From Thermomicrobiales bacterium (GTDB lineage: Bacteria; Chloroflexota; Chloroflexia; Thermomicrobiales; UBA6265), in the NCBI GenBank assembly GCA_035305265.1, contig DATGPC010000050.1:1-61023 (forward strand): 61,023 nt of DNA, written 5' to 3'. The notes beneath the pieces are model-generated. The model ran no database searches and was not told the DNA's origin. It saw only the letters and a program-made list of their open reading frames with translations. The first letter of the stretch is position 1. Each line of letters begins with the position of its first letter. Below, in pieces: positions 44,625-61,023 of the stretch. Made by a program: the position numbers and the translations under genes.

Positions 44625-45548
44625 ATGCCCCCATCTCCTTCATTTGGCCTGGTTCTGCCGAATTTCGGTCCCTGGGCGCACCCACAAACCTTCGCAGACC
44701 TCGCGGCGCTCGCCGACGCTTCGGGCTGGCACGGTATCTTCCTGACCGACACGATCCAGATGCAAGGGACAGAGGGCCTCCCCGCAGTTGACCCCTGGAT
44801 CTCGCTCGCCGCAATGGCGATGCAGACCCGTGACATCAGGCTCGGGACCATCGTTTCAGCTCCTTCACGCCGACGGCCCTGGCAACTGGCACGTGAGCTC
44901 GCCACGCTCGATCACCTGTCCGGGGGACGGCTGATTCTGGGAGTCGGAGCCGGGGATCCTCACGATCGCGCATTCTCTGCGTTCAACGAAACCGGGACCG
45001 TTCGGGAGCGGGCTGCGATCCTCGACGAAACCCTCGAGCTCATCACCCGATTCTGGAGCGGTGAACAGGTGCGTCACGACGGCCAGCACTTTACCGTCGA
45101 CGATGTTGCCCTGCTCCCCCGGCCGATACAGCGGCCCCGGATCCCGATCTGGGTGGGGTGGCAGTGGCCCGCGAAGAAACCCCTGGATCGCGTTGCGAGA
45201 TGGGACGGTGCCGTCCCGTTCGCCATCGAGGAGGATGGCACCTATTCGAACCCGACGCCCGACGAACTGCTGGAGATCCAACACCTGATCGCCCAACGAC
45301 ACGCCTCAGGCACGCGGCCGGATATCGTGTCATATGCCGAGTTGCTGGATACCGAAACCCATCCGAACGACGTTGACGCCCTCCACCAACTGGTCTCGGC
45401 CGGGGCGACGTGGCTTATCCATTTTGTGGACCCATCGGTATCGCTTGACACCCTGCATCGAGGGATCGAATCGGGTCCGCCCGTTCTCCCGTCCGACCGC
45501 AGCCGCGTGGAAGGCCGCGTCGGTCAGGAGTCCTCGGCAACAGGCTGA
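44625..45548 (+). CDS. LLM-class (luciferase-like) flavin/F420-dependent oxidoreductase
   Basis: GWHGIFLTD, LGTIVSAP and SGGRLILGVGAG. Paralogue of 43636..44571. Confidence 0.8.
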   Translation: MPPSPSFGLVLPNFGPWAHPQTFADLAALADASGWHGIFLTDTIQMQGTEGLPAVDPWISLAAMAMQTRDIRLGTIVSAPSRRRPWQLARELATLDHLSGGRLILGVGAGDPHDRAFSAFNETGTVRERAAILDETLELITRFWSGEQVRHDGQHFTVDDVALLPRPIQRPRIPIWVGWQWPAKKPLDRVARWDGAVPFAIEEDGTYSNPTPDELLEIQHLIAQRHASGTRPDIVSYAELLDTETHPNDVDALHQLVSAGATWLIHFVDPSVSLDTLHRGIESGPPVLPSDRSRVEGRVGQESSATG

Positions 45549-47077
45549 ATTGTCAGCAGCCCGCGCGAGGTCACCGGCGGGAACGCACCGTATCCGGCAA
45601 GGCCACTCTTCACCGCATCGAAATAGTGTGGCCGGAAGAGCACGATCACCGGGGCTTCCTGTCGCACGCGCTCTTCGATCAGCCGGTAGCGCGGCTGGCG
45701 AAGGGCGCGCGGGCGTTGCAGGATCGCGCCCCGCACCAGCCCGTCGATATGCGGGTTCGCATACCCGGAGTGGTTGAGGTTTCCGTCTGACGCCAGCAAT
45801 GGCCGCACCAGTTCGTGAGGGTCCCGCCACGGCTCGGAATAGCCGACAAACATATCGAACCTGCGATTGCGGAGGGCCTCGTCCAGCTCCCGGCCCCGCA
45901 GGAGATCGACCGACAACGCGATCCCGCACGTCGCGAGCTGCTCCTGCAGGACGACCGCCGTCGTCGCCAATGTCGCGTCCTCATCGTCGGTGATCATGTG
46001 CAGCCGGAGATCGGAGGGGATACCCAAGCGCCGCAGCTCCTCGCGCACGCGATCGGGCGACTCCTGAGGCACCTCATCCAGCCCGGAAAACGCCCATGAG
46101 GACTCCGGGAAAAGCAGGCCCGTGGGTGTCGCCTGCCCTGCGGTCGCGACCTCGACCAATCGCGCCCGGTCGATCGCGGCCGAGAGCAGACGACGCACCC
46201 GGGCGTCTCGCAGCTCGGGCATCTGCAGGTTCAGCTGCAAATGGCAGATCCGGTTCGACGGCCCACCGACCAGATACACCGTCGGCTCGTCTCGCAGCAT
46301 CGGGATATCGAGGAGCGGCACATTCGGCACGAGATCGATGGTGCCGGCCGCGATGGCTGTCGCCCGGCGGGAGTCGTCGGCGATCGCCTCGACATGGACG
46401 GCCTCGATCCGGGGCCGCCCGATCTCCCAGAAATGCTCGTTCCGCGCATAGAGCATGCGGTTGCCATCGCGAACACGGAGCCAGAAGGGTCCCGTGCCGC
46501 CGACGATGGCCGGCGGGTTGGTACCGGCGCGCACCACGCCGAACGCCTGGTGTGCCAGGGACGCCTCGAGCGAGGCATCCGGTCGCGACAACTCGAGCCG
46601 GACAGTCTGGCCGTCGATCCGCTCGCAGCGCTCGATATGCTCGGTTCGCCATCCATGCCGCGTCGACGAAGCGCCGTTGCGCACCCGCTCGATCGCATAC
46701 TGGACGTCCTCGGCGCGCACCGGCGTGCCGTCAAAGAACAGCGCGCCTGGCCGGACGACGAGGTCGATCGCCGTCTCATCCCCCGCGACCGGTTGGTAGG
46801 ACGCCAGCGCCGTCACGACCTGACCGGATGCGTTCCACCTGCTCGGCGTATCGAGCGCCAGCGTGTCCATCCAGAGGTGGTCGATCGACTCGCGCCGTGT
46901 CGGGTCCAGTGACAGGGGAAGACGCCCGACGGCCACCCGGACAAGGCCGATCCGTTCCGGCGGTGGCGATTGCGCGCGGGAAAGTCCGGACATGGCGACG
47001 GCCCCCACGCCGCCGGCAAGGAGTGCCCGGCGCGAGAGCCGTCGAGACGTGAGCATATGTTCAGGCCGGCGTGCCAT
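45524..47077 (-). CDS. ABC transporter substrate-binding protein, family 5 (peptide/nickel/opine type)
   Basis: SRRLSRRALLAGGVGAVAMSG Tat-like signal and SBP_bac_5 length and profile. Start ATG 47077 lies 10 nt after the lysJ stop. The 3' end overlaps the convergent LLM gene by 25 nt. Confidence 0.8.
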   Translation of the reverse strand: MARRPEHMLTSRRLSRRALLAGGVGAVAMSGLSRAQSPPPERIGLVRVAVGRLPLSLDPTRRESIDHLWMDTLALDTPSRWNASGQVVTALASYQPVAGDETAIDLVVRPGALFFDGTPVRAEDVQYAIERVRNGASSTRHGWRTEHIERCERIDGQTVRLELSRPDASLEASLAHQAFGVVRAGTNPPAIVGGTGPFWLRVRDGNRMLYARNEHFWEIGRPRIEAVHVEAIADDSRRATAIAAGTIDLVPNVPLLDIPMLRDEPTVYLVGGPSNRICHLQLNLQMPELRDARVRRLLSAAIDRARLVEVATAGQATPTGLLFPESSWAFSGLDEVPQESPDRVREELRRLGIPSDLRLHMITDDEDATLATTAVVLQEQLATCGIALSVDLLRGRELDEALRNRRFDMFVGYSEPWRDPHELVRPLLASDGNLNHSGYANPHIDGLVRGAILQRPRALRQPRYRLIEERVRQEAPVIVLFRPHYFDAVKSGLAGYGAFPPVTSRGLLTIQPVAEDS

Positions 47078-47087
47078 CAGGACCGCG

Positions 47088-48269
47088 TCACGCCTCGAGC
47101 GCGCGGGACAGGGCCTCAACGAGCGTATCAGCGTGCTCGCGCTCCCAGATCATCGGCGGCAGGAACCGGATCACGAGCGACCCGGCGGGCAGCGCCAGCA
47201 CGCCATGCTCCTGCAGCGCACGCAGCACCGGCGTGGCCTTCTGCTTCAGCTCGATGCCCAGCATCAGCCCCTCACCACGCACCGCGCGGATCTTCGGGCT
47301 CCCGATGGCCTCGATCTGCTGTTTTGCATACGCGCCAACATCCGTTGCACGCGTATACAGGTCATCCTCGCGCAGGATGCGGAGCGTCTCCGTTGCGCCG
47401 CGGGAGACGAGCGGATTCCCGCCGAACGTCGAGCCGTGCGCCCCGGCCGGGATCGCCTCGCTGATCGTTTCCGTCACGAGCGTCAGGCCGATCGGCATCC
47501 CGTTGGCAAGGGCCTTCGCCGTCGCGAGGATATCGGGCACCACGCCCTTCGCCACGCCGGCGAACGGCGCCCCGGTCCGGAAGCCGGACTGCACCTCATC
47601 GAACATCAGCAGCGCACCGTGCTGCGTCGCCAGCTCGCGGGCCTTCTGGAGCCATGCCGGGTCGGCGGGATGGATACCGCCTTCTCCCTGTACCGGCTCG
47701 AGGATCACCAGCGCCGTCGTCTCGTCGATCGCCGACTCGAGCGCTTCGAGATCGTTGAAGGAAACATGCGTCGCCTCCATCGCGAACGGCTCGAATGGCG
47801 CCCGGTACTTCTTGTCCGCGGTCGCGGCGAGCGCGCCCATCGTCCGGCCGTGGTACGCGCGCTTCGCGGCGACAATACCAGTGCGGCCGGTCGCGGCACG
47901 GGCGAACTTGATCCCCGCCTCGATCGCCTCGGTTCCGGAGTTGCTCAGGAACGCGCGCCCCAGCCCTTCCGGCGCGATGGTGCCGATCTCCTCCAGCAGC
48001 GCCGATCGGGCGTCGTTGTAGAAGCTCTGGTGGCAGGTCGTGAGCAAGCCGAGCTGATCGGTCACCGCCGCCGTGAAACGCGGATGCGCGTGCCCCAGCA
48101 CCGCGACGCCGTAGTTGCTCATCGCGTCGAGGTACCGGTTCCCCTCGCTATCGAACAGCCAGGCGCCCTCACCGCGCACCAGCGCGATGTCCCGCTTCGC
48201 GTACAGCGGAATCTGCTTCTCGCGGTCGAGCTGCGCGATCGATTCGGTGGTCATTGTGTCAGTCATCAT
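47088..48269 (-). CDS. lysJ: Class III aminotransferase: acetylornithine / [LysW]-aminoadipate-semialdehyde transaminase
   Basis: GHAHPR, SNSGTEAIE, LMFDEVQSGFRTG and the ATAKALANG PLP-Lys context (ArgD/LysJ family). Confidence 0.85.
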   Translation of the reverse strand: MMTDTMTTESIAQLDREKQIPLYAKRDIALVRGEGAWLFDSEGNRYLDAMSNYGVAVLGHAHPRFTAAVTDQLGLLTTCHQSFYNDARSALLEEIGTIAPEGLGRAFLSNSGTEAIEAGIKFARAATGRTGIVAAKRAYHGRTMGALAATADKKYRAPFEPFAMEATHVSFNDLEALESAIDETTALVILEPVQGEGGIHPADPAWLQKARELATQHGALLMFDEVQSGFRTGAPFAGVAKGVVPDILATAKALANGMPIGLTLVTETISEAIPAGAHGSTFGGNPLVSRGATETLRILREDDLYTRATDVGAYAKQQIEAIGSPKIRAVRGEGLMLGIELKQKATPVLRALQEHGVLALPAGSLVIRFLPPMIWEREHADTLVEALSRALEA

Positions 48270-48357
48270 AGTCCTCAAGAAGCCAAAAAAAGCGCTCGCC
48301 GCCCATGAAAAAGTTTGTCATTCTGAGCGGAGCGAAGAATCCCCGTGCGAAGCACAT

Positions 48358-49005
48358 TCAATCGCGCGAAACGCGTTCCTTATTCAATCGCCGCACGAGA
48401 TCCGGCACCTCCGCGAGCGAGTCGATCCGGTGCCGCACCTGCTCCATCTCCGGCCACCCTGCGTGGAGATAGCCCCACGGGCCTCGCCGGATGAACACAG
48501 CGTGCATCCCGATCTCCTGCGCCGGCAGGATGTCGTTGTCGATACGGTCGCCGACGTACATCACCTCAGCCGGCTCCATCTCCAGCTCATCGGCCATCCG
48601 CCGGAAGAAGGCCGGGTCCGGCTTCGTCACGCCCCATGACGTCGAGGACGCGTTGAGCGTCAGCGGAAGACCGAGGTCCGCCATCTGCTCGATAGCGCCG
48701 GACGGCTGGTTCCCCGCCACGCCAAGCACGAACCCCTGATGGCTCAGGCGCTTCAGCGTCGGGACTACATCCGGGTACAGGTCGCGGCTCTCGATGCGGT
48801 AACCAATGATGTTCGGGTCGACCGACTCGATCTGCATCACGTTGAAGAGGCTGCGATGGCTCTCCCGCCGCTCGATCAGGCCGCCCAGCACGCCATGCAA
48901 AGTCAACTCGGGGACACCGGCGTAGGCCGCCACCGATGACCAGAACCTGGTCTCGTTGACGAGCGTCTCGCCCTGGTCGAATACGATCGCCCGAATCGTT
49001 GTCAT
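48358..49005 (-). CDS. HAD-superfamily hydrolase
   Basis: Motif I VFDQGET, motif II GVAGNQ, motif IV YVGDRIDND. 4-nt ATGA overlap with the upstream lysZ. Confidence 0.8.
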   Translation of the reverse strand: MTTIRAIVFDQGETLVNETRFWSSVAAYAGVPELTLHGVLGGLIERRESHRSLFNVMQIESVDPNIIGYRIESRDLYPDVVPTLKRLSHQGFVLGVAGNQPSGAIEQMADLGLPLTLNASSTSWGVTKPDPAFFRRMADELEMEPAEVMYVGDRIDNDILPAQEIGMHAVFIRRGPWGYLHAGWPEMEQVRHRIDSLAEVPDLVRRLNKERVSRD

Positions 49006-49826
49006 GCCACCTTCTTCCCCGCCCGAACGACGGTGCCCTCACCTGCCAGTGCCCGCGTCACAGGTTGTTCGACGCGAGCATCGGCGAAGATCACTTGCTC
49101 GACACCCTTCTCGACCGCCTTGATCGCCTGCTCGACCTTCACGACCATGCGTCCGGCCGCCGCGGCGAGCGCGCCTTCGGCATCCGAGGCGTCGATCTCG
49201 CGAACCAAAGTGCTCTCATCATACCGGTCCTGGAGCAATCCCGGCGTATCGGAGAAGAAGAGCAAGCCCCGCGCGCCCATCGCTTCGGCGAGTCCGAGTG
49301 CGAGCTTGTCGCCGTCGAAGTTGATCGGCACGCCGCCCTCCGACAGGCCTGGCGGCGAGACGAGGACGACGAACCCGGCGTCCATCAGCGTCGTGATGAC
49401 GGTCGGATCGAAGTCCTTGACGCTCCCGGCGTGGTCGTCGCGCAGGACCTTCATCTTGCCGTCGATGTCGGTGCCACGGATCTCCGCCTTGCGCTTGCCG
49501 AAGGCGATGCCGCCATCGATCGCGCTGAGCCCAACCGCATTCACGCCCTGGGCCCGGAAATCGGCCACGGCATGCTTGTTCACCTTGCCGCAGTACGCCA
49601 TGAGCATGGCATCCATCGTCTCGGCGTCGGTGTAGCGGCTCTCGCGGCCGCTCTTCGAGGTGATCTTGCGCACGGGAAGCCCGAGTGCCTCGCAAAGCTG
49701 GCTGAATTCCGCGTTCCCGCCATGCACGATCACCACCGGCTCATCGAGCGTGGCGATATCCTTCGCGAACCGCGTGTACACATCGGCGCCGATCCCCGCG
49801 CCGCCTCCGATTTTGACCACAAGCAT
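49002..49826 (-). CDS. lysZ: [LysW]-aminoadipate / acetylglutamate kinase family
   Basis: MLVVKIGGGAG, VIVHGGN and amino-acid-kinase fold motifs. Short form (274 aa) typical of LysZ. Confidence 0.85.
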   Translation of the reverse strand: MLVVKIGGGAGIGADVYTRFAKDIATLDEPVVIVHGGNAEFSQLCEALGLPVRKITSKSGRESRYTDAETMDAMLMAYCGKVNKHAVADFRAQGVNAVGLSAIDGGIAFGKRKAEIRGTDIDGKMKVLRDDHAGSVKDFDPTVITTLMDAGFVVLVSPPGLSEGGVPINFDGDKLALGLAEAMGARGLLFFSDTPGLLQDRYDESTLVREIDASDAEGALAAAAGRMVVKVEQAIKAVEKGVEQVIFADARVEQPVTRALAGEGTVVRAGKKVA

Positions 49827-49978
49827 GAAACGTTCTGCCTCTTTCGCGCCTACGCGCCGGACACAAGGTCCGGCGGTACGGATGTCCTTGCGTACCGCCG
49901 GACCTCGCAGCCGCGGCCGGTGTCCGGCGCAATGGAGCGGAGGGCTTTTCGCCCTCCGCCCGTACGCGAAGCGATTGG

Positions 49979-51028
49979 CTAAATCGGGTGCAGGCCCGGG
50001 AACTCCAGCCCGGTCTTCTCCGGGAAGCCCATTCGGATGTTCATCGACTGCACCGCCTGCCCCGAAGCACCCTTCATCAGGTTGTCCAGCGCAGCCATGA
50101 CGACAACGCGGTTCGAATGCTCATCGCGCTCGAAGCCCACGTCGCACCAGTTCGACCCACTCAGGAGCTTCGGCTCCGGATAACGGTGAACGCCGGTGTT
50201 CTCCTTCACCAGCCGCATGAACGGCTCGTCCTTGTACGCCTCGCGGTAGATCTTCCGCAGCCTCTTGTCGTCGAGGTCTTCCTTCAGGAAGACGTGGGAT
50301 GTCGCCAGGATGCCCCGCACGGCCTCGATCGACGTCGCCGAGAAGCTCACCTTCGGCGTCTCGCCGTGGAACGTCAGCTCCTGGATGATCTCCGCGCTGT
50401 GCCGGTGGCCGGTCGGCTTGAACGAGCGCATTGCGCCGCTCCGCTCGGCGTGGTGCGAGGCCACGCTCGGCGATCCCCCGGAGCCGGACGAGCCGGTCTT
50501 CGCCTCGACGATCACCGGCATCTCCAGGTCGACGACGCCAGCCATGAAGAGCGGATAAAGCCCGAGGATCGTCGTTGACGACATGCAGCCAGGAGACGCG
50601 ATCCAGTCCGCCGACTCGATCTGCTTCCGGTGTAGCTCCGGCATGCCGTAGACGAACGTGCCGAGCGCGTCCAGGTCCTCATGCTCGTGGCTATACCACT
50701 TCGGATAGTCACCGGCGTTGTTCAGCCGGAAGTCCGAACTGAGGTCGATCACGACCGGCGCGAGATCCCGCACCTTCGGCAGCATCTTCATCGAGACGCC
50801 GTGCGGCAGCGCGAGGAAGAGCACGTCGCAGGGCTCGAGCTTGTCGCTGGAGACGAACTTCAGGTCGGTGACGCCTCGCAGGTTCGGGTGCGTGCTCTTC
50901 ACGAACTTGCCGGCCTGCCGCTCCGAGGTGACCTGCTTCAGGGCGACCTCCGGGTGGAACAGCAGCAGCCGAACCAGCTCGCCGCCAGCGTAGCCAGACC
51001 CGCCGATCACAGAAACGTTGAGACTCAT
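49979..51028 (-). CDS. lysY: N-acetyl-gamma-glutamyl-phosphate / [LysW]-aminoadipyl-phosphate reductase
   Basis: [12 protein letters not shown] Rossmann start and SPGCMSTT active-site Cys (ArgC/LysY). Confidence 0.9.
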
Positions 51029-51933
51029 ACCGCTATTTCCTCCGCCTGGACCTGTCGCCTGGCTCGATTCCCCTCGCCGACGGCGAGCACGTAATCAATG
51101 ATCTTCGCCGGGATATCGACCCCGGTCGTGTGGATGGAGTTCCGGAACTCCATCGTGTAGTTCACTTCGTTGACCTGCAGTCCCTGGTCGGTCTCGAACA
51201 GGTCAACCGCAACCACCCCGCCGCCAACCGCCTGCGCCGCCCGGAGGGATACCTCGGACAGCTCCGGTGTCACTGGGCAGTTGCTCGCCTGCCCACCGCG
51301 TGCCGTGTTCGTGATCCAGTGCGGCGAGTCCCGGTAAATCGCGCAGATGGTCTCATCGCCTACCACGAACGACCGGATGTCCCGACCATTCTTCTCGACG
51401 TACTCCTGGATATAGAACGCGCCGTGATGGAACGACCCCAGCGTCACCTTGTGCTCCAGTAGCGCCTCGGCCGCGTCGCGGTCGTTCACCCGCGCCAGCA
51501 GCCTGCCCCACGACCCGATCGCCGGCTTGAGCACCACCGGATACCCCAGCTCCTCGATCGCCTCGATGGCCGACTCCGGCGTGTAGGCGATCCGCGTCCG
51601 TGGCATCGGCACGCCGTGTCGAGCCAGGGCCTGCGTCGTCAGCAGTTTGTCGCCGCAGATGTTCGCGACCTCGTACATGTTGACCGTCGGGATGCCCCAG
51701 TCGTTCAGCGTCCGCATCGTATACATCGCGCGCAGGTGGTTGATGCAACGCTCCAGCACGACGTCGCAGGCCATGAGCTCCGGATCCGGATGCACCGGAT
51801 CGAGCGTCAAGGTCCGGTCATCGAACCGAACGACCTCCACGCCCCGGCGCTCCAGCTCCGCGAGCAGCAGCTTTTCTTCCACGCGAACCCGCGACATGAG
51901 AATCCCCACGCGCGGAGAGTGTTCCTGTACCAT
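51025..51933 (-). CDS. lysX: RimK-type ATP-grasp ligase, LysX/ArgX family (copy 1, intact motifs)
   Basis: [55 protein letters not shown] and VAVDLFE...VNEVN. 4-nt overlap with lysY. Start at MVQEHSPR (51933). Confidence 0.85.
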
Positions 51934-52250
51934 CCGGAACGTCCTTTCCCGGCGCCCTGATGCGCCGGCGAACTGCACACGGCCCACCTCGTCAAGAGGA
52001 CGGGGGCCGCTCCGTGGTACCACCTCTGTTCGCGTGCTCCTCACAGATGCACGCCTTGGCGAGTGCGCGCCCGCGCACCCACGCCCGATAACGGAGGCTG
52101 CCGACCGGGTCTACTGACCGGGCGATTCTCGCCCGGCGTTCTTCCGGTTGCTCGGGGACCTTCATGTGACCACCCATGCCGCGACGCTCTCACCGTCTCG
52201 TCGCTCGCTGGGGCCGGGTTACCGGCCACATGTTCCCGTCAACGCAGGTA
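51934..52250 (-). promoter_or_regulatory. T-box riboswitch leader (non-canonical specifier loop) with predicted SD sequestration
   Basis: Minus strand: AG bulge AGCGA (52209..52205), distal loop GGUGAGA (52194..52188) closed by GCGACG/CGUCGC, specifier-side loop GAAGGUC (52163..52157), F-box-like CCGUUA. T-box core AACAGAGGUGGUACCACGGA (52030..52011). CGUCCU (52002..51997) is complementary to SD AGGACG (51945..51940). Confidence 0.75.
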
Positions 52251-52272
52251 TTCGGTTTTCAGGTTGCTTCGT

Positions 52273-52291
52273 CCTGCACCACGCGTGCAAG
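52273..52291 (-). repeat. Copy c of a conserved spacer hairpin (CTTGCAC-GCGTG-GTGCAGG)
   Basis: Shares the stem and loop pattern with 53323..53345 and 55319..55339 (one stem mismatch). Lies upstream of T-box leader 1. Confidence 0.5.
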
Positions 52292-52346
52292 ACATCGACC
52301 GCAAATCGATAGATAACCCAGCGCAATGCGGCGCCTGCGGGTCCGA

Positions 52347-52367
52347 TCCCGGACACATGGTCCGGGA
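52347..52367 (-). terminator. Hairpin after the lysX-like copy 2 stop (no U-tract)
   Basis: 7-bp stem TCCCGGA / TCCGGGA with a 7-nt loop, 10 nt after the stop codon. May separate the two T-box-controlled units. Confidence 0.35.
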
Positions 52368-52376
52368 CTACGAAGA

Positions 52377-53291
52377 TTACCCGACACCCGCCGCCGTCAA
52401 CGGGTCCATCACCCGCTCACGCGCCACCCGCGCCGCCTCCTCGACAATCTCTCCCGCGATATCACGGTCGGTCGTCGTCATCAGGCCCTTGAACTCGCCG
52501 CCGGTATTGATCTCGATGACCTTCAAGCCGTCATCGGTCTCGATCAGGTCGACACCAGCGAGCCGCGCCCCGACGACCTCGCAGGCCCGCAGGGCAAGCT
52601 CCTCGATCTCCGGCGTCACCGGACACGGTACCGACACCGCGCCCCGCGCCGCATTCGTGATCCAGTGCTCCGACGTGCGATACGACGCCGCGACGATCTT
52701 CCCGCCGACAACGTAGGCGCGAATATCCCGTCCCGGTTTCTCGACGTACTCCTGGATATAGAAGATTTCGTGATGGAAGGAGCCATGCTCGGACTTCTGC
52801 TGGATGATCGCCCGGGCCTGGTCCGGACCGTTCACCTTCGAGATGAGGCGACCCCAGGAGCCCGCGACCGGTTTCAGCACCGCCGGGTACCCGAGCTGCT
52901 CGCACGCCTCCAGCGCCGACTCCACCGAGTAGGCGACGAAGGTCTTCGGCGACGGTATCCCCGCCGCCTCCAGCACCATGCTGGCTCGGGCCTTATCGTC
53001 GCAGATCGTCACTGCCGCCGCGCTGTTCAGCGTTGGCACGCCCCATCGATTCATCGCCCAGAGCGTGTAGCCGGCGCGGGAGTGAACGACGCTGCGGTCC
53101 AGCATGACATCGACATCGACTCCACTCTCGGCGGCCGTCGGCGCCGACAGGTTCAGCGTCAGGTTGCGGTCGAAGACCGGCGTGACGATCATGCCGCGCG
53201 CCCGTGCCGCCGCGAGGATCAATTTCTCTTCCTGCCGGAGATAGGAGACGAGCACTCCGAGCCGGAGCCCCGCCCCACGTTCCTGTGACAT
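52377..53291 (-). CDS. RimK-type ATP-grasp ligase, LysX/ArgX family (copy 2, intact motifs)
   Basis: [56 protein letters not shown] and GVDLIE...VIEINT. Confidence 0.85.
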   Translation of the reverse strand: MSQERGAGLRLGVLVSYLRQEEKLILAAARARGMIVTPVFDRNLTLNLSAPTAAESGVDVDVMLDRSVVHSRAGYTLWAMNRWGVPTLNSAAAVTICDDKARASMVLEAAGIPSPKTFVAYSVESALEACEQLGYPAVLKPVAGSWGRLISKVNGPDQARAIIQQKSEHGSFHHEIFYIQEYVEKPGRDIRAYVVGGKIVAASYRTSEHWITNAARGAVSVPCPVTPEIEELALRACEVVGARLAGVDLIETDDGLKVIEINTGGEFKGLMTTTDRDIAGEIVEEAARVARERVMDPLTAAGVG

Positions 53292-53322
53292 GTATTTTTC
53301 CTTATCAGAGGAGCGCTCCGTC

Positions 53323-53345
53323 GTCTCGCACCATGCGTGCGAGAC
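53323..53345 (-). repeat. Copy a of the conserved spacer hairpin (GTCTCGCAC-GCATG-GTGCGAGAC)
   Basis: Perfect 9-bp stem in the 66-nt spacer between lysK and lysX-like copy 2. Confidence 0.55.
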
Positions 53346-53357
53346 ATGGCCCCGGGC

Positions 53358-54420
<1,063 letters not shown>

Positions 54421-54443
<23 letters not shown>

Positions 54444-55278
54444 CGCGTGCCTCCTGGACCGCGCCCGACGGGGAGACCAGCGCGGCAATGGCTTCCGCCA
54501 CCGTCTTCGTTCCCAGCAACGTGCTCTTGCGGAACTCGGCCACCGGGATCGCATCCCAGACAACCAGCTCGCCTTCAATCGTCGCGATCTCGATCGCCAC
54601 CACGGCAGCGCCGATCACATTCGCCGCCTTGCACGCAAGGTCGGTCATCGCTGCGGACGGAATCGGCCCGTCGTACGCGACAGCCTCGCCGCCCACCACG
54701 TGAATACGATGCAGATGCTCATCCGACGGCGCGCCGGCCTGGACGAGAATGACAGCCTCATCCGCGCTGCCCAGAACGATCCGGTGCTCGATGACCGCAT
54801 CAGCGGTATCCGCATCATGCAGCGTCGTCGACGCGGTTCCCGGGATCATCGGCAGCAGCGTGGCGGGATAGCCCACCATACCGGCCGCCTGAACACCGGT
54901 CGCCTCGGAGAAGGCGATCATCGTCTTCGGCCGCGGAAGCCCCGCTCGAGTCAGGGCCGTGGCGACTTCCTGACGGTTCCTCGTCGACGCCAGGCCGGCA
55001 TCGATGACCCGCACGCCGGACTGGCGAAGCAGCCTGGCAAACGGCCTGGCCACCTGCCGGTTCGTCGACCGGTCAATGATCACGCCATCGGCGCCGAGGA
55101 TACCGGCGTCGGAGGAGTCGCCCAGCGCCGCGATGTCCTGCGGCGCCGGGCACGGAGGCAAGGGCAGGCTCATGGGGGATACCGGCATCGCCACCGCTCC
55201 GGCCTCGCCGAAGGCGGTGATGAGCTGCTTCTCTTCCACACGAACGCGCGCGCAAAGCACGCCGACTGCCGTTGCCAT
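54421..55278 (-). CDS. Degenerate LysX/RimK-like ATP-grasp paralogue (predicted catalytically inactive)
   Basis: The N-terminus VGVLCARVRVEEKQLI aligns with both LysX copies. The motifs are replaced: GYPATLLPMIPGTAS for [14 protein letters not shown], ILVQAGAPSDEHLHR for [14 protein letters not shown], IEIAT...VWDAI for VDLxE...ExN, and there is no NTARGG. The frame is intact with high GC3. Confidence 0.7.
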
Positions 55279-55318
55279 GTCCGTTGACTTCTCCTTGCGA
55301 GGTCATATCCTCGCGTAG

Positions 55319-55339
55319 CCTCGCACCATGTGTGCGAGG
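55319..55339 (-). repeat. Copy b of the conserved spacer hairpin (CCTCGCAC-ACATG-GTGCGAGG)
   Basis: Perfect 8-bp stem in the spacer between lysW and the degenerate ATP-grasp gene. A second hairpin GCGAGG/CCTCGC sits next to it (about 55295..55315). Confidence 0.55.
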
Positions 55340-55367
55340 AATCGGCCACAGGCGGATATTCGGGCGA

Positions 55368-55535
55368 CTACTCGCCCCAGTCCTCGCCCTCTTCCGGCGC
55401 CAGCGCGAGCGTCACCGGATCGGTGCTTACAACTTCGAGATCCGCGCCACAATCACCGCACGGCACGATCTCGCCAACCTCAACGCCTTCGACCTCGACC
55501 TCGGCGTCACACTCGGGGCAAACTGCGGTAGCCAT
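55368..55535 (-). CDS. lysW: Amino-group carrier protein LysW
   Basis: 55 aa. Zinc-ribbon CPECDAEV...CGDCGADL and an acidic tail ending EEGEDWGE. AAGGGAAGG RBS upstream. Confidence 0.85.
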   Translation of the reverse strand: MATAVCPECDAEVEVEGVEVGEIVPCGDCGADLEVVSTDPVTLALAPEEGEDWGE

Positions 55536-55601
55536 TGCTGAACCTTCCCTTTCATCAATCCCTGGATCACGGCCGATCGCCGGACCTGACATACCTACGC
55601 G

Positions 55602-56678
55602 TTAGCTCTTGTCCATGACGGCCGAGGCATCGGACACCGTCGGGATGTCCTCACTCGTACGCTCGTCATGCAGCACCTGCAGCAGCACCGCCTTGTGGAC
55701 ATGCAGCCGCCCTTCGGCCTGGTCGAAGATGATCGACTGCGGGCCATCCGCAACCTCCGGCTCGACCTCCTGTCCGCGGTGCAACGGCAGGCAGTGCATG
55801 AAGACCGCCTCCGGTTTCGCGTGTGCCATGACCTCCCTGGTCACCCGGTAGGGCGCCAGCGCGACCAGTTTTCCCGGATTCTCCTGCTCGCCCATGCTCT
55901 CGTGCACATCGGTATAGACCGCATCCGCACCGTCCGCCGCCTCGAACGCCGAATCGACGAACTCCAATTTGGCACCGGTCTGCGCCGCAATCGCTTGCGC
56001 TTCGGCGACCACGGCCGGCTCCGGCGCGTAGTCCTTCGGCGTCGCGACGGACATGTTCACGCCGCTGGATGCCATCGCCAGCATCAGTGAATGGCAGACA
56101 TTGTTGCCATCACCCAGATAGGCGAATTTCAACCCGGTGAGGGTCCCGAAGTGTTCATACAATGCGAAAACGTCGCTCAACGCCTCGAGCGGGTGATCGT
56201 GCGAGGTCAGGGCGTTGAACACCGGCACCGTCGCGCCGCCGGCGAACTCATCCAGGTCGGCCGGGTCCGCGATGCGCGCGGCGACCGCATCGACGTAGCG
56301 GCTGAAGATCCGCGCCGTGTCCCCGATCGTCTCGCCTCGCTTGAGCTGCAGGTCCTGGATCCCAAGGAAGATCGCCTGCCCGCCCAACTGCTCCATCCCC
56401 GCCTGGAACGCCGTCCGCGTTCGCGTGCTCGGGTGCTGGAAGATCATCCCCAGCGTCTTGCCGCCCAGCCACGGATGCGGCTCCCCCGCCACGCGCATCG
56501 CCTTGAGCGTAAGCGCGGTCTCCAGGATCGCGGTGCGCTCGTCCGGGCTGAGATCGGTGTCGCGCAGGATGGACTTGCCGCGAAGCGATCCTGTCAGGAC
56601 CATTTCCTTGATCTCGCCGTCTCGCACCTGCTGGATCCTTCGTTCTTGCGTGGTGGTAGCTGTCGACACTGCGCTCAT
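55602..56678 (-). CDS. argF: Ornithine carbamoyltransferase-like protein (copy 1)
   Basis: FQHPSTRTR, LKRGETIGDTA, HPLEALSD, GDGNNV, DVHESMG and HCLPLHRGQEV. Confidence 0.8.
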   Translation of the reverse strand: MSAVSTATTTQERRIQQVRDGEIKEMVLTGSLRGKSILRDTDLSPDERTAILETALTLKAMRVAGEPHPWLGGKTLGMIFQHPSTRTRTAFQAGMEQLGGQAIFLGIQDLQLKRGETIGDTARIFSRYVDAVAARIADPADLDEFAGGATVPVFNALTSHDHPLEALSDVFALYEHFGTLTGLKFAYLGDGNNVCHSLMLAMASSGVNMSVATPKDYAPEPAVVAEAQAIAAQTGAKLEFVDSAFEAADGADAVYTDVHESMGEQENPGKLVALAPYRVTREVMAHAKPEAVFMHCLPLHRGQEVEPEVADGPQSIIFDQAEGRLHVHKAVLLQVLHDERTSEDIPTVSDASAVMDKS

Positions 56679-56688
56679 CCGGCTTCCC

Positions 56689-57783
56689 CTAGCACATCGT
56701 GTGCACAAGAAGCGCCTTGTGCATGTGAAGCCGGTTCTCGGCCTGGTCGAAGATCACCGACTGCGCACCATCGGCGACGTCGGCGGCGACTTCCTCGTCC
56801 CGGTGCATCGGCAGGCAGTGCATGAAGATCGCATCCGGCGCGGCCTTGGCCATGACATCGGACGTCACCTTGTACGGCGCGAGCGCAACGGCCCGGTTCG
56901 CGGCATCCATCTGGCCCATGCTGACGTGCACGTCGGTATAGACCGCGTTGGCGTCCTTCGCTGCCTCATACGGATCCGTCGTGACCTCGATCGTGGCGCC
57001 GGTGGACGAGGCGATCCACTGCGCGTGCTTCACCACGGCAGGATCGACCTGGTAGTTGGATGGGGCGGCGACCGAGACGCTGACGCCCATCGCGGCGCCG
57101 GAAAGCATGAGCGACGACGCCATATTGTTGCCGTCCCCGAGGTAGGCCAGCTTCAGCCCCTTCAGCTCTCCAAAGTTCTCCTGGAGCGTCATGAGGTCGG
57201 CCAGCGCCTGCAGCGGATGGCAGAGATCGGAAAGACCGTTCATGACCGGGATGGTCGCGGACGTCGCAAGCTGGATGAGGTCGTTGTGGTCCGCGACGCG
57301 GGCAACGATGGCATCCACGTACCGGCTGAGGATCTGCGCCGTATCGCCGATCGTCTCCCCCCGCTTCATCTGCAGGTCATTCACGCCGAGGAAGATCGCC
57401 TGGCCACCCAGCTGCGCCATGCCCGCCTCGAGCGAGACGCGGGTCCGGGTGCTCGGGTGCTGGAAGATGAGGCCAAGGGTCTTTCCGGTCAGGTAATGAT
57501 GCGGCTGGCCGGTCTTGGCGAGTCGCTTCAGCCGAACAGCGGTATCGACCAGCTCGGCGATCTCGTCCGGCGTGAGGTCGGTGTCGACCAGCACATGCCG
57601 CCCCCGCAGCCGGGTGCTGACGGAGAACGCCGGCAATGACTGCACCTGCGGGCCGCCGAGCAGCGAGGTGCGGTCCGACGCCGGGCCGGAGAGCTTCTGG
57701 CTCACGGACGGCACGGACCGAAGCTCCGGCGTGACATGCGGCAGGGCGGAATCGTCGACTGTGGTGGTGACCTGGTTCTGCAT
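56689..57783 (-). CDS. Ornithine carbamoyltransferase-like protein (copy 2, about 65-aa N-terminal extension)
   Basis: FQHPSTRTR, MKRGETIGDTA, HPLQALAD, GDGNNM, DVHVSMG and HCLPMHRDEEV. AAGGGAG RBS 6 nt before ATG 57783. Confidence 0.8.
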   Translation of the reverse strand: MQNQVTTTVDDSALPHVTPELRSVPSVSQKLSGPASDRTSLLGGPQVQSLPAFSVSTRLRGRHVLVDTDLTPDEIAELVDTAVRLKRLAKTGQPHHYLTGKTLGLIFQHPSTRTRVSLEAGMAQLGGQAIFLGVNDLQMKRGETIGDTAQILSRYVDAIVARVADHNDLIQLATSATIPVMNGLSDLCHPLQALADLMTLQENFGELKGLKLAYLGDGNNMASSLMLSGAAMGVSVSVAAPSNYQVDPAVVKHAQWIASSTGATIEVTTDPYEAAKDANAVYTDVHVSMGQMDAANRAVALAPYKVTSDVMAKAAPDAIFMHCLPMHRDEEVAADVADGAQSVIFDQAENRLHMHKALLVHTMC

Positions 57784-58103
57784 GGTGGACTCCCTTTGGT
57801 TCTGGTTCTTTCCTGCGAAAAGCCGCAGACGCCAGGTCGACTGGCCAATATGGCCTGTCGAACCAAAGGGGCGAGAGACGTCGAATCCCGCGGTACCACC
57901 CTTCTTGCGCGGCGAGCGCCACGCATCTCTCGGCTGTTGCTTCCATGGGAGCCACCCATCCGGACCTACTTGCGCGAACGCGCTTTCTTCGGCCGGCCGC
58001 TCATGGGCGCGTTCGGCGATCCTGCGCTGGTCCCGGGCTTCCACCGTCCCCGGGTCGCTATGGCGCATGAACCGCGTACTGGTCCCAGTCATCGCGGGCG
58101 GTG
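57784..58103 (-). promoter_or_regulatory. T-box riboswitch leader, Arg specifier (CGC), with predicted SD sequestration
   Basis: Minus strand: GAUGA K-turn (about 58093..58089), AGUA (58080..58077), AG bulge AGCGA (58059..58055), distal loop GGUGGAA (58045..58039), specifier GAA-CGC-G (58014..58008). T-box core AAGAAGGGUGGUACCGCGGG (57906..57887). CCUUUGGUUC (57869..57860) is complementary to GAACCAAAGG (57802..57793), which covers the SD. Confidence 0.85.
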
Positions 58104-58589
58104 TCCCGACAAACGGACACCAGGCACATGAGGTTGTGAGAAAAGACGAAGTTGCGGAAAGCGCTAACGGTGTTCGGCCGCTAGCGCGTCGTACGGTCGC
58201 GACGCGCGAGCGGCGTTCGGGGATGGAGGGCAGGTGACCATCCCAACACCTTGCTTGTACTGGAATCTGTGCTGATCATCGTGTGCTCCGTTGAGGAGAT
58301 AGGAAAACCGAAGGATCGACAACCCGAAAACGTTACGGACGGCGACGAGGCTCGTCCGCAGGCCTGGGCCTGGGGTCGATACGACGATCGGTTCGACGGA
58401 GCATGGTCATGATGGTCAAATACTTTCTTGCGTGCCGTTTGAGTTCCACAAACAGCGATTCGGCGTCCACGAGACACCCCACCCGGCACTCGCGATCTCC
58501 CAATCGGGATGGCATGTCACGAGCACGAGGTCAGCGTAATGGACCACGAACGCGGATGTCAAGTGAAAGAGCCATCGCCGGGCCGATGG

Positions 58590-58842
58590 CTATTCGTCAT
58601 CGTCCCCGAAGAGCGTCAGGGACCACGCTTCGCGGTTGATCTCCGTCGCGTAGCCAGAGGGGCGCATGATGAGCCCACCACCGCTGGTCGTCGCCACCGG
58701 CACCGTCTCGCCGATCTCGGTTGGGCATCAGCCCTGCATCCACACGACAGGATCGGTCTCTTCAATTTCACGCGTAGAGCATCGCAATCGTTTCACATAA
58801 ACCGACCAGCGCATCCTTCATCCGCCCGCAATCAATAGTCAT
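58590..58842 (-). pseudogene. Possible decayed small gene (one frameshift plus one in-frame TGA)
   Basis: ATG 58842 gives MTIDCGRMKDALVGLCETIAMLYA then a stop. A shifted frame continues REIEETDPVVWMQG-TGA-CPTEIGETVPVATTSGGGLIMRPSGYATEINREAWSLTLFGDDDE to TAG 58592..58590. A hairpin GCCATCG/CGATGGC plus a T-rich tail follows. Confidence 0.3.
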
Positions 58843-58942
58843 TGTTCGTAGTCGTGTCTAAATTTGTCTTTGTTATGCGTCTTAACTAGTGAAGACATCT
58901 TTGGTCTTCGTCGCATTGGTTTTCGCTCGGAGGAGAGATGCA

Positions 58943-59707
58943 ATGAGCGCGGAACGGAATGAGATGATTATTCGTGCCAGTATTTCTGACATCGCAGGAG
59001 TTGCCGACAGAGACGAGAGACCTCTGGAGATTGGCTACTACCTCGCCTTCGATGATCGCTGTGGTACTTGCATTTATCTCGCTCAAGAGATTCGAAAGAT
59101 CACCTCGAAGATAGCCACGATCGGCTTCTCTGATCGAAGAGTCTCTGCCCTACTCCAGGAACTAGAAATGGATGAGTCTATGATTCGTCCAACTATGTTT
59201 CGCGTGGAATCGAGAGAAACCCAAGCCTGGACTGGTTATGGCCTGATGGCAAAACTAGCCACTGTACTTGGCCCGCGAGACTCTTTCAGAATCGCTCGCT
59301 TGATCGGCGACATGGAAGCGTCACGGTCAACTGATGACTCCACAAAGTCGAGGCTGCTGCGCAGGGATTTTGTCAAGGGCTTGGCAGGAGCGGCTGCGGG
59401 ATTAGCCTTGGTCAACACAGCGCGATCTAGTGCTTCAGCCGATGATTTGTCCAATTGCGAGAGCTGGGTGCCCGACTCTGTAGCCCACAATTACAACTAC
59501 ATTGTGGAAGAACCCGCTAACTGCCGTCGCTGCCCATACACGTGGTCCCCAGAAGCAACGACGCTGAGCCAAGGTGTAGTGGTAGGCGTCCGAGAAATGG
59601 TGGCGAGTCAGGATGCCTTCGGAATCGGTAACCCGTATTGGTTCCGGACCCGTGGTCAAAAAGGCTGTTGGGTGTACGGGCCGCTTCTGAGCGACAACCC
59701 GGTTTAG
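58943..59707 (+). CDS. Hypothetical two-part protein: N-terminal CxxC domain, internal twin-arginine signal, Cys-containing C-terminal domain
   Basis: GGAGGAG RBS before ATG 58943. FDDRCGTCIYLAQEI CxxC motif. Residues about 124-165 (counted from ATG 58943), MEASRSTDDSTKSRLLRRDFVKGLAGAAAGLALVNTARSSASA, form a complete Tat signal in frame (ATG 59312). Low-GC region. Confidence 0.6.
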   Translation: MSAERNEMIIRASISDIAGVADRDERPLEIGYYLAFDDRCGTCIYLAQEIRKITSKIATIGFSDRRVSALLQELEMDESMIRPTMFRVESRETQAWTGYGLMAKLATVLGPRDSFRIARLIGDMEASRSTDDSTKSRLLRRDFVKGLAGAAAGLALVNTARSSASADDLSNCESWVPDSVAHNYNYIVEEPANCRRCPYTWSPEATTLSQGVVVGVREMVASQDAFGIGNPYWFRTRGQKGCWVYGPLLSDNPV

Positions 59708-59733
59708 AGCCCTATTTTCCTGTCCGACTTAAC

Positions 59734-59766
59734 TCGGGCGGCTCGCCTCATTGGCGAGCCGCCCGA
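59734..59766. terminator. Bidirectional terminator hairpin
   Basis: 14-bp perfect stem TCGGGCGGCTCGCC / GGCGAGCCGCCCGA between convergent genes. Confidence 0.75.
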
Positions 59767-59942
59767 ACCGCCTTAGCGACACCGCGGACAGCGATGAGTG
59801 TGACTATTTGAGCCGTTGCCAGAGCCGCGGTCGCGCAACAACGAGACGCTGATACTCAATACAATGCTCCTCGTGCAGGTCCTTTCATGTTCGCTCTAGA
59901 CGCGGTCGTAAAGTAACTGAAACGGTGGCAGATCTGATGGCC

Positions 59943-60509
59943 TCAAAAAGCATCAAAGAGTTGGTTCGCGCTTGCCTGCTCCCATATCTTCTGTTTTATT
60001 CTCGTGAGCCGCTTCGACATACCAGCAACTGAACTGGAATGCCTCTCCGCAAGTTCTCTAGCGCTGAATCCAAAGAGAACATTCTCAATCAGCAGGATCC
60101 GGCTCTCGTGATCCACCATCTGCAATATCACTCCAACGGTTGACTCCCCAAGCACTATTGACGTCACAAATCTCTCCCAGGATTCGTTAGGGACACTCTC
60201 ATCCGGCAAGAGATCCAAACTCACGTTCTGGTTGTCACGCTTTCGTAGATGATCGTGATACTCATTCACGGCGATCGTCTTTGCCCAGCCAAAGAAACTC
60301 CCAGAAATGTGAAGCCGATTGAGCTGAAGGATGCATCTGGTGAGCGCGTTATGAGTGATTTCCTCAGCTAGTACAGGGTCTTCCGTTCTTGAAACGACTA
60401 CGGGATACGTCCTCTTGACACCTTGCTCGTACAGCAATTCGCAAGCATGCTCGTTACCTGCGAGACATCGCTTAACAAATACAGCAATAGCATCTGTCGC
60501 CGTGTCCAT
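59943..60509 (-). CDS. ECF-type sigma-70 family sigma factor
   Basis: Region 2 FFGWAKTIAVNEYHDHLRKR and region 4 HTH FSARELAERHSSSVAGMSKRLTRIKQKI. Low-GC codon usage. Confidence 0.75.
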   Translation of the reverse strand: MDTATDAIAVFVKRCLAGNEHACELLYEQGVKRTYPVVVSRTEDPVLAEEITHNALTRCILQLNRLHISGSFFGWAKTIAVNEYHDHLRKRDNQNVSLDLLPDESVPNESWERFVTSIVLGESTVGVILQMVDHESRILLIENVLFGFSARELAERHSSSVAGMSKRLTRIKQKIWEQASANQLFDAF

Positions 60510-60609
60510 AGTGCCCCCGCTCGTTGTCGTAATTTTCCGGTGACTACATCTTGCAAGGGCTATGTCTGAATGTCAATAGGTATGAGGGCGAAATCTTGGC
60601 GTTCGATCC

Positions 60610-60852
60610 CTAAGATGTGCCGTTGCCGACACAGGAAAGGATACGCCGCCAGAGAGCGTACTCTGGAGAACTCACAGCGCCCGAGCTTTCTTGAACACGA
60701 TCCGCCCAATGATGAAACTGCTCTGCAACGTCAGTGAGCTTTTTGGCTCTCTTTTCCGAGGCTGCAACGTTACTCGCCTCTACGGTTATTTCCCTGTGAT
60801 TCAGATAATCGTTCAGCGGTCCCTGAACGTAGTCTTCACCTTTATGCATCAT
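60610..60852 (-). CDS. Hypothetical small protein (80 aa) upstream of the sigma factor
   Basis: GGGGGAGG RBS before ATG 60852. No recognisable motif. Confidence 0.45.
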   Translation of the reverse strand: MMHKGEDYVQGPLNDYLNHREITVEASNVAASEKRAKKLTDVAEQFHHWADRVQESSGAVSSPEYALWRRILSCVGNGTS

Positions 60853-61023
60853 TGCGTACCTCCCCCCTGAGGACGTTAGCCAGTCGCATCATCTGCATTA
60901 CCGAAATGGCCCTCCACATGGAAAGCGATTGTTGGTTCTTACACCTGATAACGGAATATCATCGAAGCGGGTATCAAATTGATTCGGCGTCAGTTATTCT
61001 GCGCAATCAGAAGCCACCTCGTA

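Follow-up and report, generated by a model that had tools for sequence, protein, structure and literature searches.

Biosynthesis on LysW, an amino-group carrier protein (AmCP), is a leading model for how lysine and arginine synthesis diverged from a promiscuous ancestor. Its arginine/ornithine branch has hitherto been demonstrated in archaea alone and is listed for archaea only in recent reviews of the field; bacterial LysW has been assigned to lysine or to secondary metabolites. Here we describe a LysW gene cluster in a 61,023-nucleotide stretch of an uncultured Thermomicrobiales bacterium from soil (Chloroflexota; contig DATGPC010000050.1 of assembly GCA_035305265.1), referred to at its full length as the window. 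Eleven co-directional minus-strand genes and two leader RNAs occupy positions 47088-58101, with genes overlapping or separated by short gaps. They include two intact ATP-grasp LysW ligases, ligase 1 (52377-53291) and ligase 2 (51025-51933), a degenerate ATP-grasp gene (the dead LysX paralogue, 54421-55278) and two genes for ornithine carbamoyltransferases (OTCases). From the sequence comparisons below we consider it probable (roughly 0.6) that the cluster encodes a bacterial LysW pathway for two products, similar to the LysX/ArgX system of Sulfolobus but separately evolved in the Thermomicrobiales.

In Sulfolobus, two paralogous ATP-grasp ligases, LysX and ArgX, act on one carrier and choose between lysine and ornithine, and kinase, reductase, transaminase and hydrolase are shared (Ouchi et al. 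2013, as summarized in PMC12998189). That system is archaeal, its ArgX has the specificity residues I-Y-V-GF, and T-boxes, a dead paralogue and an OTCase gene within the operon are all lacking. The LysW lysine pathway of Thermus thermophilus (LysX structures 3VPD and 1UC8) is bacterial, its LysX carries F-I-T-NS as ligase 2 does, and its LysZ, LysY, LysJ and LysK are of identical types. It differs in that LysW serves lysine only, arginine being made by the acetyl route (PMC12998189), and in having a single ligase and no T-box control. The ArgW/ArgX system of Natrinema gari (PMC10433800) is a carrier route from glutamate to ornithine that is clustered with argF, and its ligase has Ala-Leu at positions 258/259 where ligase 1 has Gly-Leu. 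It is archaeal, serves arginine only (lysine comes from diaminopimelate) and has no riboswitches. Full-text literature searches returned no account of a bacterial LysW route to ornithine or arginine, of a T-box-controlled LysW operon or of a pseudo-ligase of this kind, and papers on GapMind and on Chloroflexi do not mention a bacterial LysW arginine route.

Two LysW Ligases of Different Type

A scan of species-representative genomes gave 424 relatives, of which the best 80 loci were taken with 10 kb on either side; all 80 are from uncultured Thermomicrobiales. The ligases were compared at the five residues of the published specificity motif, positions 182-192-203-258/259 when numbered as in T. 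thermophilus LysX (Shi et al. 2025, PMC12998189). The alignment used for mapping reproduced the motifs of the references: F-I-T-NS for T. thermophilus LysX (TtLysX), I-Y-V-GF for StArgX and Y-I-T-NA for the bifunctional TkLysX. In 60 of 64 loci ligase 2 reads FITNS, in exact agreement with the LysX motif as published. It scores 345 bits with the LysX_arch model and 325 bits against T. thermophilus LysX (3VPD), its close relative, and it combines this motif with intact ATP-grasp residues and GSWGR, the features that mark a LysX.

Ligase 1 scores 301 bits with LysX_arch and is likewise intact, with VLKP, GSWGR (which recognizes the LysW tail), QE, GRDIR, HWITNxARG and the D/E/N residues. Its specificity motif is Y-S-A-GL in the window, and the census counted YSAGL 59 times, FSTGL 14 times, FSVGL four times and YSSGL three times; Ser192 and Gly258-Leu259 are constant (x-S-x-GL). 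The Sulfolobus ArgX signature I-Y-V-G-F is absent, and ligase 1 has in common with it only Gly258 and a hydrophobic residue at 259. Archaeal ArgX function itself comes with differing motifs in Sulfolobus and in haloarchaea. The Natrinema ArgX, which used Glu and not 2-aminoadipate (AAA) in vitro, has Ala-Leu at 258/259, SaArgX has Gly-Phe there, and AAA-accepting enzymes carry Asn258 (PMC10433800). The Gly-Leu pair of ligase 1 thus fits the pattern of Glu-loading enzymes, with residues at 192 and 203 that are new. Ligase 1 is also the most constrained gene of the cluster (dN/dS 0.02-0.06).

In an exhaustive search of 1.8 billion cluster representatives the ligase 1 type formed a single cluster at 50% identity, and the next-nearest relatives were FITNS proteins with 44-47% identity. 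Exact copies of ligase 1 were found on metagenome contigs only, and the named homologues are all metagenome-assembled genomes (MAGs) labelled 'Thermomicrobiales bacterium' or 'Chloroflexia bacterium'. A neighbour-joining tree with 100 bootstraps recovered the ligase 1 clade as monophyletic in 100/100 replicates and as sister to StArgX in 0/100; the exact sister group was not settled by this tree. Orthology of ligase 1 with archaeal ArgX is therefore ruled out, and since it shares neither the ArgX motif nor the ArgX clade, ligase 1 would be an analogue of ArgX and not a member of it. An earlier note on this DNA, made from the sequence alone, had proposed that one ligase loads Glu and the other AAA, to be checked by placing both on a phylogeny with LysX and ArgX. 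The proposal gains support from the exact LysX motif of ligase 2 and from the non-LysX motif of ligase 1 with its Glu-fitting Gly-Leu, but ligase 1 turned out to be no ArgX orthologue. The check itself would mislead, because ligase 1 forms a separate bacterial clade outside ArgX.

Unrelated ligases with GL or AL motifs also occur elsewhere. One lies in an argH-like-lysW-ligase-lysY-lysZ cluster and another in a transketolase/non-ribosomal peptide synthetase (NRPS) AmCP cluster, a pathway type that is primed with glutamate (PMC9570651). A contig of 16.9 kb (L086, ENA ERZ27253201) carries an unrelated AmCP secondary-metabolite cluster that resembles the vazabitide/DADH type. It comprises a split transketolase, lysW, a ligase with the motif IMVAL, lysY, lysZ, an M20 hydrolase, several phosphodiesterase-family genes, MbtH and an NRPS.

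Operons With Ligase 1 Only

In two of the related loci, L026 (site at 10891-10968) and L052 (10849-11246), an Arg T-box, an OTCase gene, lysW, the dead paralogue, lysK and ligase 1 are followed directly by lysY, lysZ and lysJ. No FITNS ligase was found within 10 kb in either. These ligase-1-only operons look like an arginine-type carrier operon in bacteria, and they resemble the haloarchaeal ArgW/ArgX pathway. L048 also has no FITNS ligase and is led by an Arg T-box and an OTCase gene; of the three downstream genes, lysY and lysZ alone turned up in this locus, beyond a gap of 2.6 kb.

A single ligase, of the FSVGL type, is also present in short contigs of the Thermomicrobiaceae MAGs L081, L082 and L083 and in L084, in which genes were located by tblastn; there it follows lysW, the dead paralogue and lysK. 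The next gene is lysY in L081 and L082, lysZ was found in L082, and L083 ends at the ligase. No FITNS ligase and no OTCase gene were seen on these contigs, and no T-box at E <= 1e-3 was detected in L081, L083 and L084. In L084 a UbiE-like methyltransferase gene lies directly after the ligase, and the 5' end of a bacterial 16S rRNA gene (16048-16182; RF00177, 92 bits) lies at the contig end.

An Arginine-Specific T-Box With Probable Control of Translation

At gathering thresholds, Rfam reported nothing in the whole window. In E-value mode the two T-box leaders claimed in the earlier note were both recovered as full-length matches to RF00230 (model positions 1-219), leader 1 at 57864-58101 (minus strand, 70.2 bits, E = 9.8e-14) and leader 2 at 51993-52251 (minus strand, 53.6 bits, E = 1.8e-9). 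Both fall below the gathering threshold of 93 bits, which is a curated and not a structural cut-off; the scores are lowered by the high G+C content and by long insertions. Both leaders have the T-box architecture of a Stem I with K-turn, specifier loop and distal loop, a Stem III, the 14-nt T-box and the UGGN bulge. The T-box GGUGGUACC core is invariant in the 54 loci of the leader alignment.

Leader 1 precedes the first OTCase gene. The 3' strand of its specifier loop reads GAA-CGC-G, with the specifier CGC at 58011-58009 followed by G. Among 55 loci the specifier is CGC in 50 and CGG in five, followed by G or A. This is a synonymous Arg switch upstream of an OTCase gene and bears out the Arg-sensing leader of the earlier note.

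The UGGU bulge and the antisequestrator helix, which is of the antiterminator type, lie at about 57905-57868; this helix is 99.8% paired in the alignment, with 14 double-change cells. A second, sequestrator helix (57790-57870, minus strand) was predicted by minimum free energy (MFE) folding. In it the anti-Shine-Dalgarno (SD) segment CCCUUUGGUUC (57870-57860), which continues the 3' strand of the T-box helix, pairs with GAACCAAAGGG (57802-57792). The latter belongs to the SD region GAACCAAAGGGAG (57802-57790), and the sequestered SD precedes the ATG at 57783 by 8 nt. In the alignment of 54 species the sequestrator is 82% paired, compared to 60% when slid by one column, and it has 22 double-change cells, a count attained in 0/500 shuffles. 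The compensatory changes include UUUGG/CCAAA, UUCGG/CCGAA and UUCCG/CGGAA. The two helices are mutually exclusive, and covariation stands behind both. A consensus scan of 51800-58400 found no U-tract terminator, and leader 1 has none. Given this absence of a terminator and the covarying helix that sequesters the SD, leader 1 would control translation, and that of the first OTCase cistron only. A pattern match that suggested a third T-box between the OTCase gene and lysW in some loci was rejected, as it corresponds to the codons of the conserved OTCase peptide LGGTAIY.

Actinobacterial ileS-type T-boxes reportedly act on translation, a result that is attributed to Sherwood et al. in 2015. Leader 1 resembles such translational T-boxes in that SD sequestration replaces the terminator, and its Arg specifier before an OTCase gene has a precedent in Clostridia, in which Arg T-boxes act on argF/argCJBD (PMC3766115 supplement). 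It is unlike these T-boxes in its full-length Stem I, its Chloroflexota host, its place in a LysW operon and the presence of a second, Lys-specific T-box within the gene array.

A Lysine-Specific T-Box Within the Cluster

Leader 2 lies between the two ligase genes. Its specifier AAG, at 52162-52160 and followed by G, is part of the seven-base strand AUG-AAG-G. AAG plus a purine (A or G) stays constant across about 35 loci, and the three bases before it vary freely. The specifier is therefore that of lysine, an amino acid that the earlier note had not assigned to this leader, and GGU (Gly), which was considered as an alternative, is ruled out, since conservation is limited to AAG and the purine and the base that follows is variable. 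In most species leader 2 ends in a G+C-rich hairpin of 10-13 bp with a U-rich tail and looks like a classical attenuator. The subclade of the window keeps the hairpin (arms 52009-52004 and 51985-51980), followed there by a U-poor tail, GUGUGCAGUUCG, and a short alternative pairing CGUCCU/AGGACG with the SD of ligase 2 is possible. In the window strain leader 2 may thus act either by a terminator-like hairpin or by pairing with the SD. In addition, MFE folding of 51925-52022 paired the palindromic T-box core region UGGUACCA with the ligase 2 start region CCGGAUGGUAC; this predicted pairing could sequester the ligase 2 start codon or be due to chance.

The spacer between ligase 1 and ligase 2 is bimodal, with about 350-600 nt where the T-box is present (~33 species) and 3-310 nt where it is missing (~30). 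Rfam found a single T-box in L035 and L037, and in these two loci, the ones scanned for it, no lysine riboswitch or other Rfam element was found in place of leader 2. Within 52252-52376 of the window, directly 3' of the ligase 1 stop codon, lies UCCCGGAC-caugu-GUCCGGGA, a perfect hairpin that has no U-tract. A spacer of about 100 nt separates it from leader 2 and leaves room for an internal promoter, so that the downstream genes may also be transcribed alone.

The earlier note divided the cluster into two T-box regulons. Two T-boxes are indeed present, but the division is too simple, since leader 1 would act on translation of the first OTCase only and about half of the species have no leader 2. 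The two halves are also interdependent: lysW and lysK are in the Arg half and lysZ, lysY and lysJ in the Lys half.

Gene Content and Conserved Order

Genes were identified by NCBIfam model scores relative to the family cut-offs, and all eleven genes of the earlier list were found, with coordinates that were exact or a few bases off. After the two OTCase genes, lysW (55368-55535, 55 amino acids) scores 68.8 bits with TIGR01206 (cut-off 53.2) and matches Pfam Zn_ribbon_LysW. Its product has the features of the carrier protein, with the CxxC...CxxC cysteines of the zinc ribbon and the C-terminus ...EGEDWGE. The dead paralogue is followed by lysK (53358-54443), for an M20-family [LysW]-lysine/ornithine hydrolase (NF003367, 406 bits, cut-off 363), and by ligase 1. 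Downstream of ligase 2, the start of the reductase gene lysY (49979-51028; TIGR01850, 394 bits) overlaps the ligase 2 stop codon by 4 nt. Then follow the kinase gene lysZ (49002-49826; NF010659, [LysW]-aminoadipate kinase, 305 bits, cut-off 223), a gene for a HAD-family hydrolase (48358-49005) and the aminotransferase gene lysJ (47088-48266). All these genes are on the minus strand. LysJ stays below the strict equivalog cut-off, yet LysJ_Th_th is its top-scoring model (404 bits; 384 bits for the ArgD family); LysX, LysZ, LysY and LysK are above their NCBIfam cut-offs. The cluster thus holds the full set of LysW enzymes. The HAD hydrolase has weak matches to HAD subfamilies only. Its gene overlaps lysZ by 4 nt, which couples their translation, is confined to the subclade of the window and is missing from many loci. 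Its substrates could be acyl-phosphate intermediates, which would make it a phosphatase.

Mapping by tblastn showed that the order T-box, OTCase gene(s), lysW, dead paralogue, lysK, ligase 1, optional T-box, ligase 2, lysY, lysZ, optional HAD gene and lysJ is conserved in about 70 species-level loci, and such recurrence is not due to chance. The possible extension of the second unit to 45524, suggested in the earlier note, has to be dropped: the open reading frame (ORF) 45524-47119 encodes an ABC substrate-binding protein (SBP_bac_5) outside the pathway. The 'LysN-like' aminotransferase that the same note placed at 36656-37870 matches aminotransferase domains of MocR/PdxR-type regulators and MppQ-like enzymes, and no LysN or AAA-aminotransferase model. 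It stands alone amid genes for MFS transporters, and a role in AAA formation is unsupported. In the annotated segments of the window (about 26.6-61 kb) no arg genes were found besides the OTCase genes. Just upstream of leader 1, the G+C content falls from ~65% to 50-58%. The region 58000-61023 holds a gene for an ECF-type sigma factor (59943-60509, minus strand) and an ORF of 272 amino acids without a family match, and may be a foreign or mobile segment.

Ornithine Carbamoyltransferases

The first gene of the cluster, OTC2 (56689-57783, minus strand), and the second, OTC1 (55602-56678, minus strand; start at 56627 according to gene callers), score 385 and 354 bits with TIGR00658 (cut-off 281). 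Both products conserve STRTR, DxxxSMG and HCLP, as anabolic OTCases do, and OTC2 has the canonical HPxQ as well. The earlier note described the OTCase genes as fused to the carrier unit, which holds in the sense of a common operon but not of a protein fusion. Since DxxxSMG and HCLP are kept, the enzymes should carbamoylate free ornithine after its release by LysK. An action on LysW-bound ornithine, in analogy to the acetyl- and succinyl-ornithine carbamoyltransferases, is ruled out, because the DxxxSMG loop, to which the free alpha-amino group binds, is retained in both.

Two copies are present in 37 loci and one in 16, and OTC1 is missing from 16 of 55. The second OTCase (39 loci) always has HPxE in place of the carbamoyl-phosphate motif HPxQ and DVHESMG in place of DVHVSMG. 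HDLP replaces HCLP in seven of 100 OTCase sequences, which come from five single-OTCase loci (e.g. L070) and two first-of-two copies; it also occurs in the frameshifted L074. These variants may have altered substrates or kinetics. Conservation of the SD and ATG in the leader 1 alignment pins down the OTC2 start, so that the protein has an N-terminal extension of ~58 residues. This extension (57610-57783) is of low complexity, is poorly conserved, is present in variable form in all species and precedes the canonical OTCase fold.

A Catalytically Dead LysX Paralogue Under Selection

The protein encoded at 54421-55278 (minus strand, 285 amino acids) reaches only 69 bits with LysX_arch (cut-off 276). 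It keeps the N-terminal pre-ATP-grasp motif RVRVEEK, but throughout the family it has lost the ATP-binding Lys (VLKP to TLLP), the GSWGR motif responsible for recognition of the EDWGE tail, GRDIR, the entire substrate loop and the Mg ligands. Of its 214 members, most carry the annotation 'hypothetical protein'. In every related locus the gene stands beside lysW with an intact ORF. Its dN/dS is 0.06-0.31, compared to 0.02-0.06 for ligase 1, and 42 residues are invariant across 37 diverse sequences. The dN/dS values and the retention in every locus rule out a pseudogene and indicate a selected, non-catalytic protein. A role as holder of LysW or as partner of ligase 1 is a conjecture.

The AlphaFold model has a mean pLDDT of 64.6, with confident terminal domains and very low values in the central lid, and its fold matches TtLysX, StArgX, TkLysX and PDB 5I47. 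The latter, a 'RimK domain protein ATP-grasp' of Sphaerobacter thermophilus DSM 20745 from the same order, is the best solved relative by sequence (53 bits), whereas in the fold comparison it comes third, after T. thermophilus LysX (27% identity, TM 0.54-0.61). It differs from the dead paralogue in that it seems, by eye, to keep the VLK lysine. It is a structural-genomics entry without an assigned function and at most a putative orthologue.

The Proposed Pathway and Its Alternatives

In the proposed pathway, ligase 2, as a LysX, would load 2-aminoadipate onto the C-terminal Glu of LysW, and ligase 1, with its x-S-x-GL motif, would load glutamate as an analogue of ArgX. We infer that LysZ, LysY, LysJ and LysK are shared and would turn both adducts into lysine and ornithine. 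This sharing is chemically plausible, because LysZ, LysY, LysJ and LysK of T. thermophilus accept Glu-derived intermediates (PMC12998189). The co-encoded OTCase(s) would then convert free ornithine to citrulline toward arginine. Uncharged tRNA-Arg would pair with the CGC of leader 1, stabilize the antisequestrator and free the SD of the first OTCase gene, with control exerted at the branch point from ornithine to arginine. The murein of Sphaerobacter contains ornithine (PMC3035262), which would provide a rationale for placing Arg control on OTCase and not on ornithine synthesis. Uncharged tRNA-Lys would pair with the AAG of leader 2 and lead to read-through, or in this strain possibly to translation, of lysX-lysY-lysZ-lysJ. 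The dead LysX paralogue would be retained as a non-catalytic component.

Several observations weigh against this two-product pathway. At positions 192 and 203 ligase 1 has Ser and Ala, which match neither ArgX (Tyr and Val) nor LysX (Ile and Thr). These residues would enlarge the pocket and not shrink it, so that the substrate of ligase 1 could be another compound or both amino acids. Ligase 1 also fails to group with StArgX in any bootstrap replicate. The best NCBIfam model for LysZ is that of an aminoadipate-only kinase. Furthermore, lysZ, lysY and lysJ, which are needed for ornithine, are situated behind the Lys attenuator; lysine sufficiency would therefore starve ornithine synthesis, barring substantial read-through or other gene copies. 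This would call for high basal read-through, for an action of leader 2 chiefly on LysX in some lineages or for further copies of the genes. Lastly, the x-S-x-GL enzyme is the sole ligase in the short Thermomicrobiaceae contigs and may be bifunctional there.

Some of these points recur in an explanation that we regard as rather unlikely, namely that ligase 1 is bifunctional or a second AAA ligase, that the cluster is essentially a lysine pathway with arginine made by an N-acetyl route encoded elsewhere, and that the OTCase genes just share its operon and are alone regulated by the Arg T-box. Both ligases pass LysX_arch, the nearest non-self relatives of ligase 1 are FITNS LysX types (44-47% identity) and its Tyr182 is also present in the bifunctional Thermococcus enzyme, but the Asn258 of all AAA-accepting enzymes is Gly in every ligase 1. 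Two adjacent AAA ligases would moreover be redundant, and yet ligase 1 is the most constrained gene of the cluster. It is true that leader 1 governs OTCase translation alone and that a single x-S-x-GL ligase precedes lysY and lysZ in Thermomicrobiaceae. Against this, what leads the ligase-1-only operons of L026 and L052 is an Arg T-box with an OTCase gene and not a Lys element, and the annotated part of the window (about 26.6-61 kb) has no arg gene but the OTCase genes.

It seems improbable that lysW, the dead paralogue, lysK and ligase 1 serve another carrier chemistry, such as synthesis of a non-proteinogenic amino acid or of a cell-wall precursor other than ornithine, as with the AmCP of Streptomyces. 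None of the ~70 loci has transketolase, NRPS or oxygenase tailoring enzymes, no extra enzymes are present but OTCases under an Arg-tRNA sensor, and throughout the order the cluster is universal and keeps its synteny, as core metabolism would. This has to be set against the unique Ser192 motif of ligase 1, the occurrence of AL-motif AmCP ligases in secondary-metabolite clusters and the presence of a dedicated pseudo-enzyme partner, which is unusual in primary metabolism. Very improbable, finally, is a single constitutive operon with a degenerate ATP-grasp gene in decay as a pseudogene and with an internal T-box that is a non-functional relic. The protein has no catalytic motif and a poorly modelled central domain, but its reading frame is intact in all loci under purifying selection (dN/dS 0.06-0.31; 42 invariant residues in 37 sequences), and its relative 5I47 from S. 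thermophilus folded and was crystallized. About half of the species lack leader 2, and in the window it has no U-tract, but where it is present the AAG and the T-box core are invariant. The selection analysis has already largely refuted this explanation.

Returning to the two-product pathway, we tentatively suggest a more specific version of it, which is possible but doubtful as a whole. Both lysine and the ornithine for cell wall and arginine would be made on one carrier, and ligase 1 would have become Glu-specific independently of archaeal ArgX. The dead paralogue would be a new non-catalytic subunit that binds LysW or pairs with ligase 1 and sorts or protects carrier-bound intermediates, and the Arg T-box would be at the OTCase because ornithine is always needed.

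Implications

If the two-product pathway is correct, with two paralogous ligases on one carrier in a bacterial order, the split into LysX and ArgX evolved more than once, and x-S-x-GL would be a third, independent answer to the discrimination between Glu and AAA. Should the more specific version hold as well, the cluster would represent the first bacterial carrier-protein route to arginine, the first AmCP pseudo-enzyme and an instance of one shared pathway split between two amino-acid-specific T-boxes. The locus also adds an Arg-specific T-box that would control translation in Chloroflexota and an operon-internal Lys T-box. As both ligases are annotated as 'LysX' and the pseudo-ligase as 'hypothetical', pathway-prediction tools would probably get arginine auxotrophy or prototrophy wrong for this clade. 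The proposal is testable in a cultured relative, Sphaerobacter thermophilus, from which the crystal structure of the relative of the dead paralogue was obtained.

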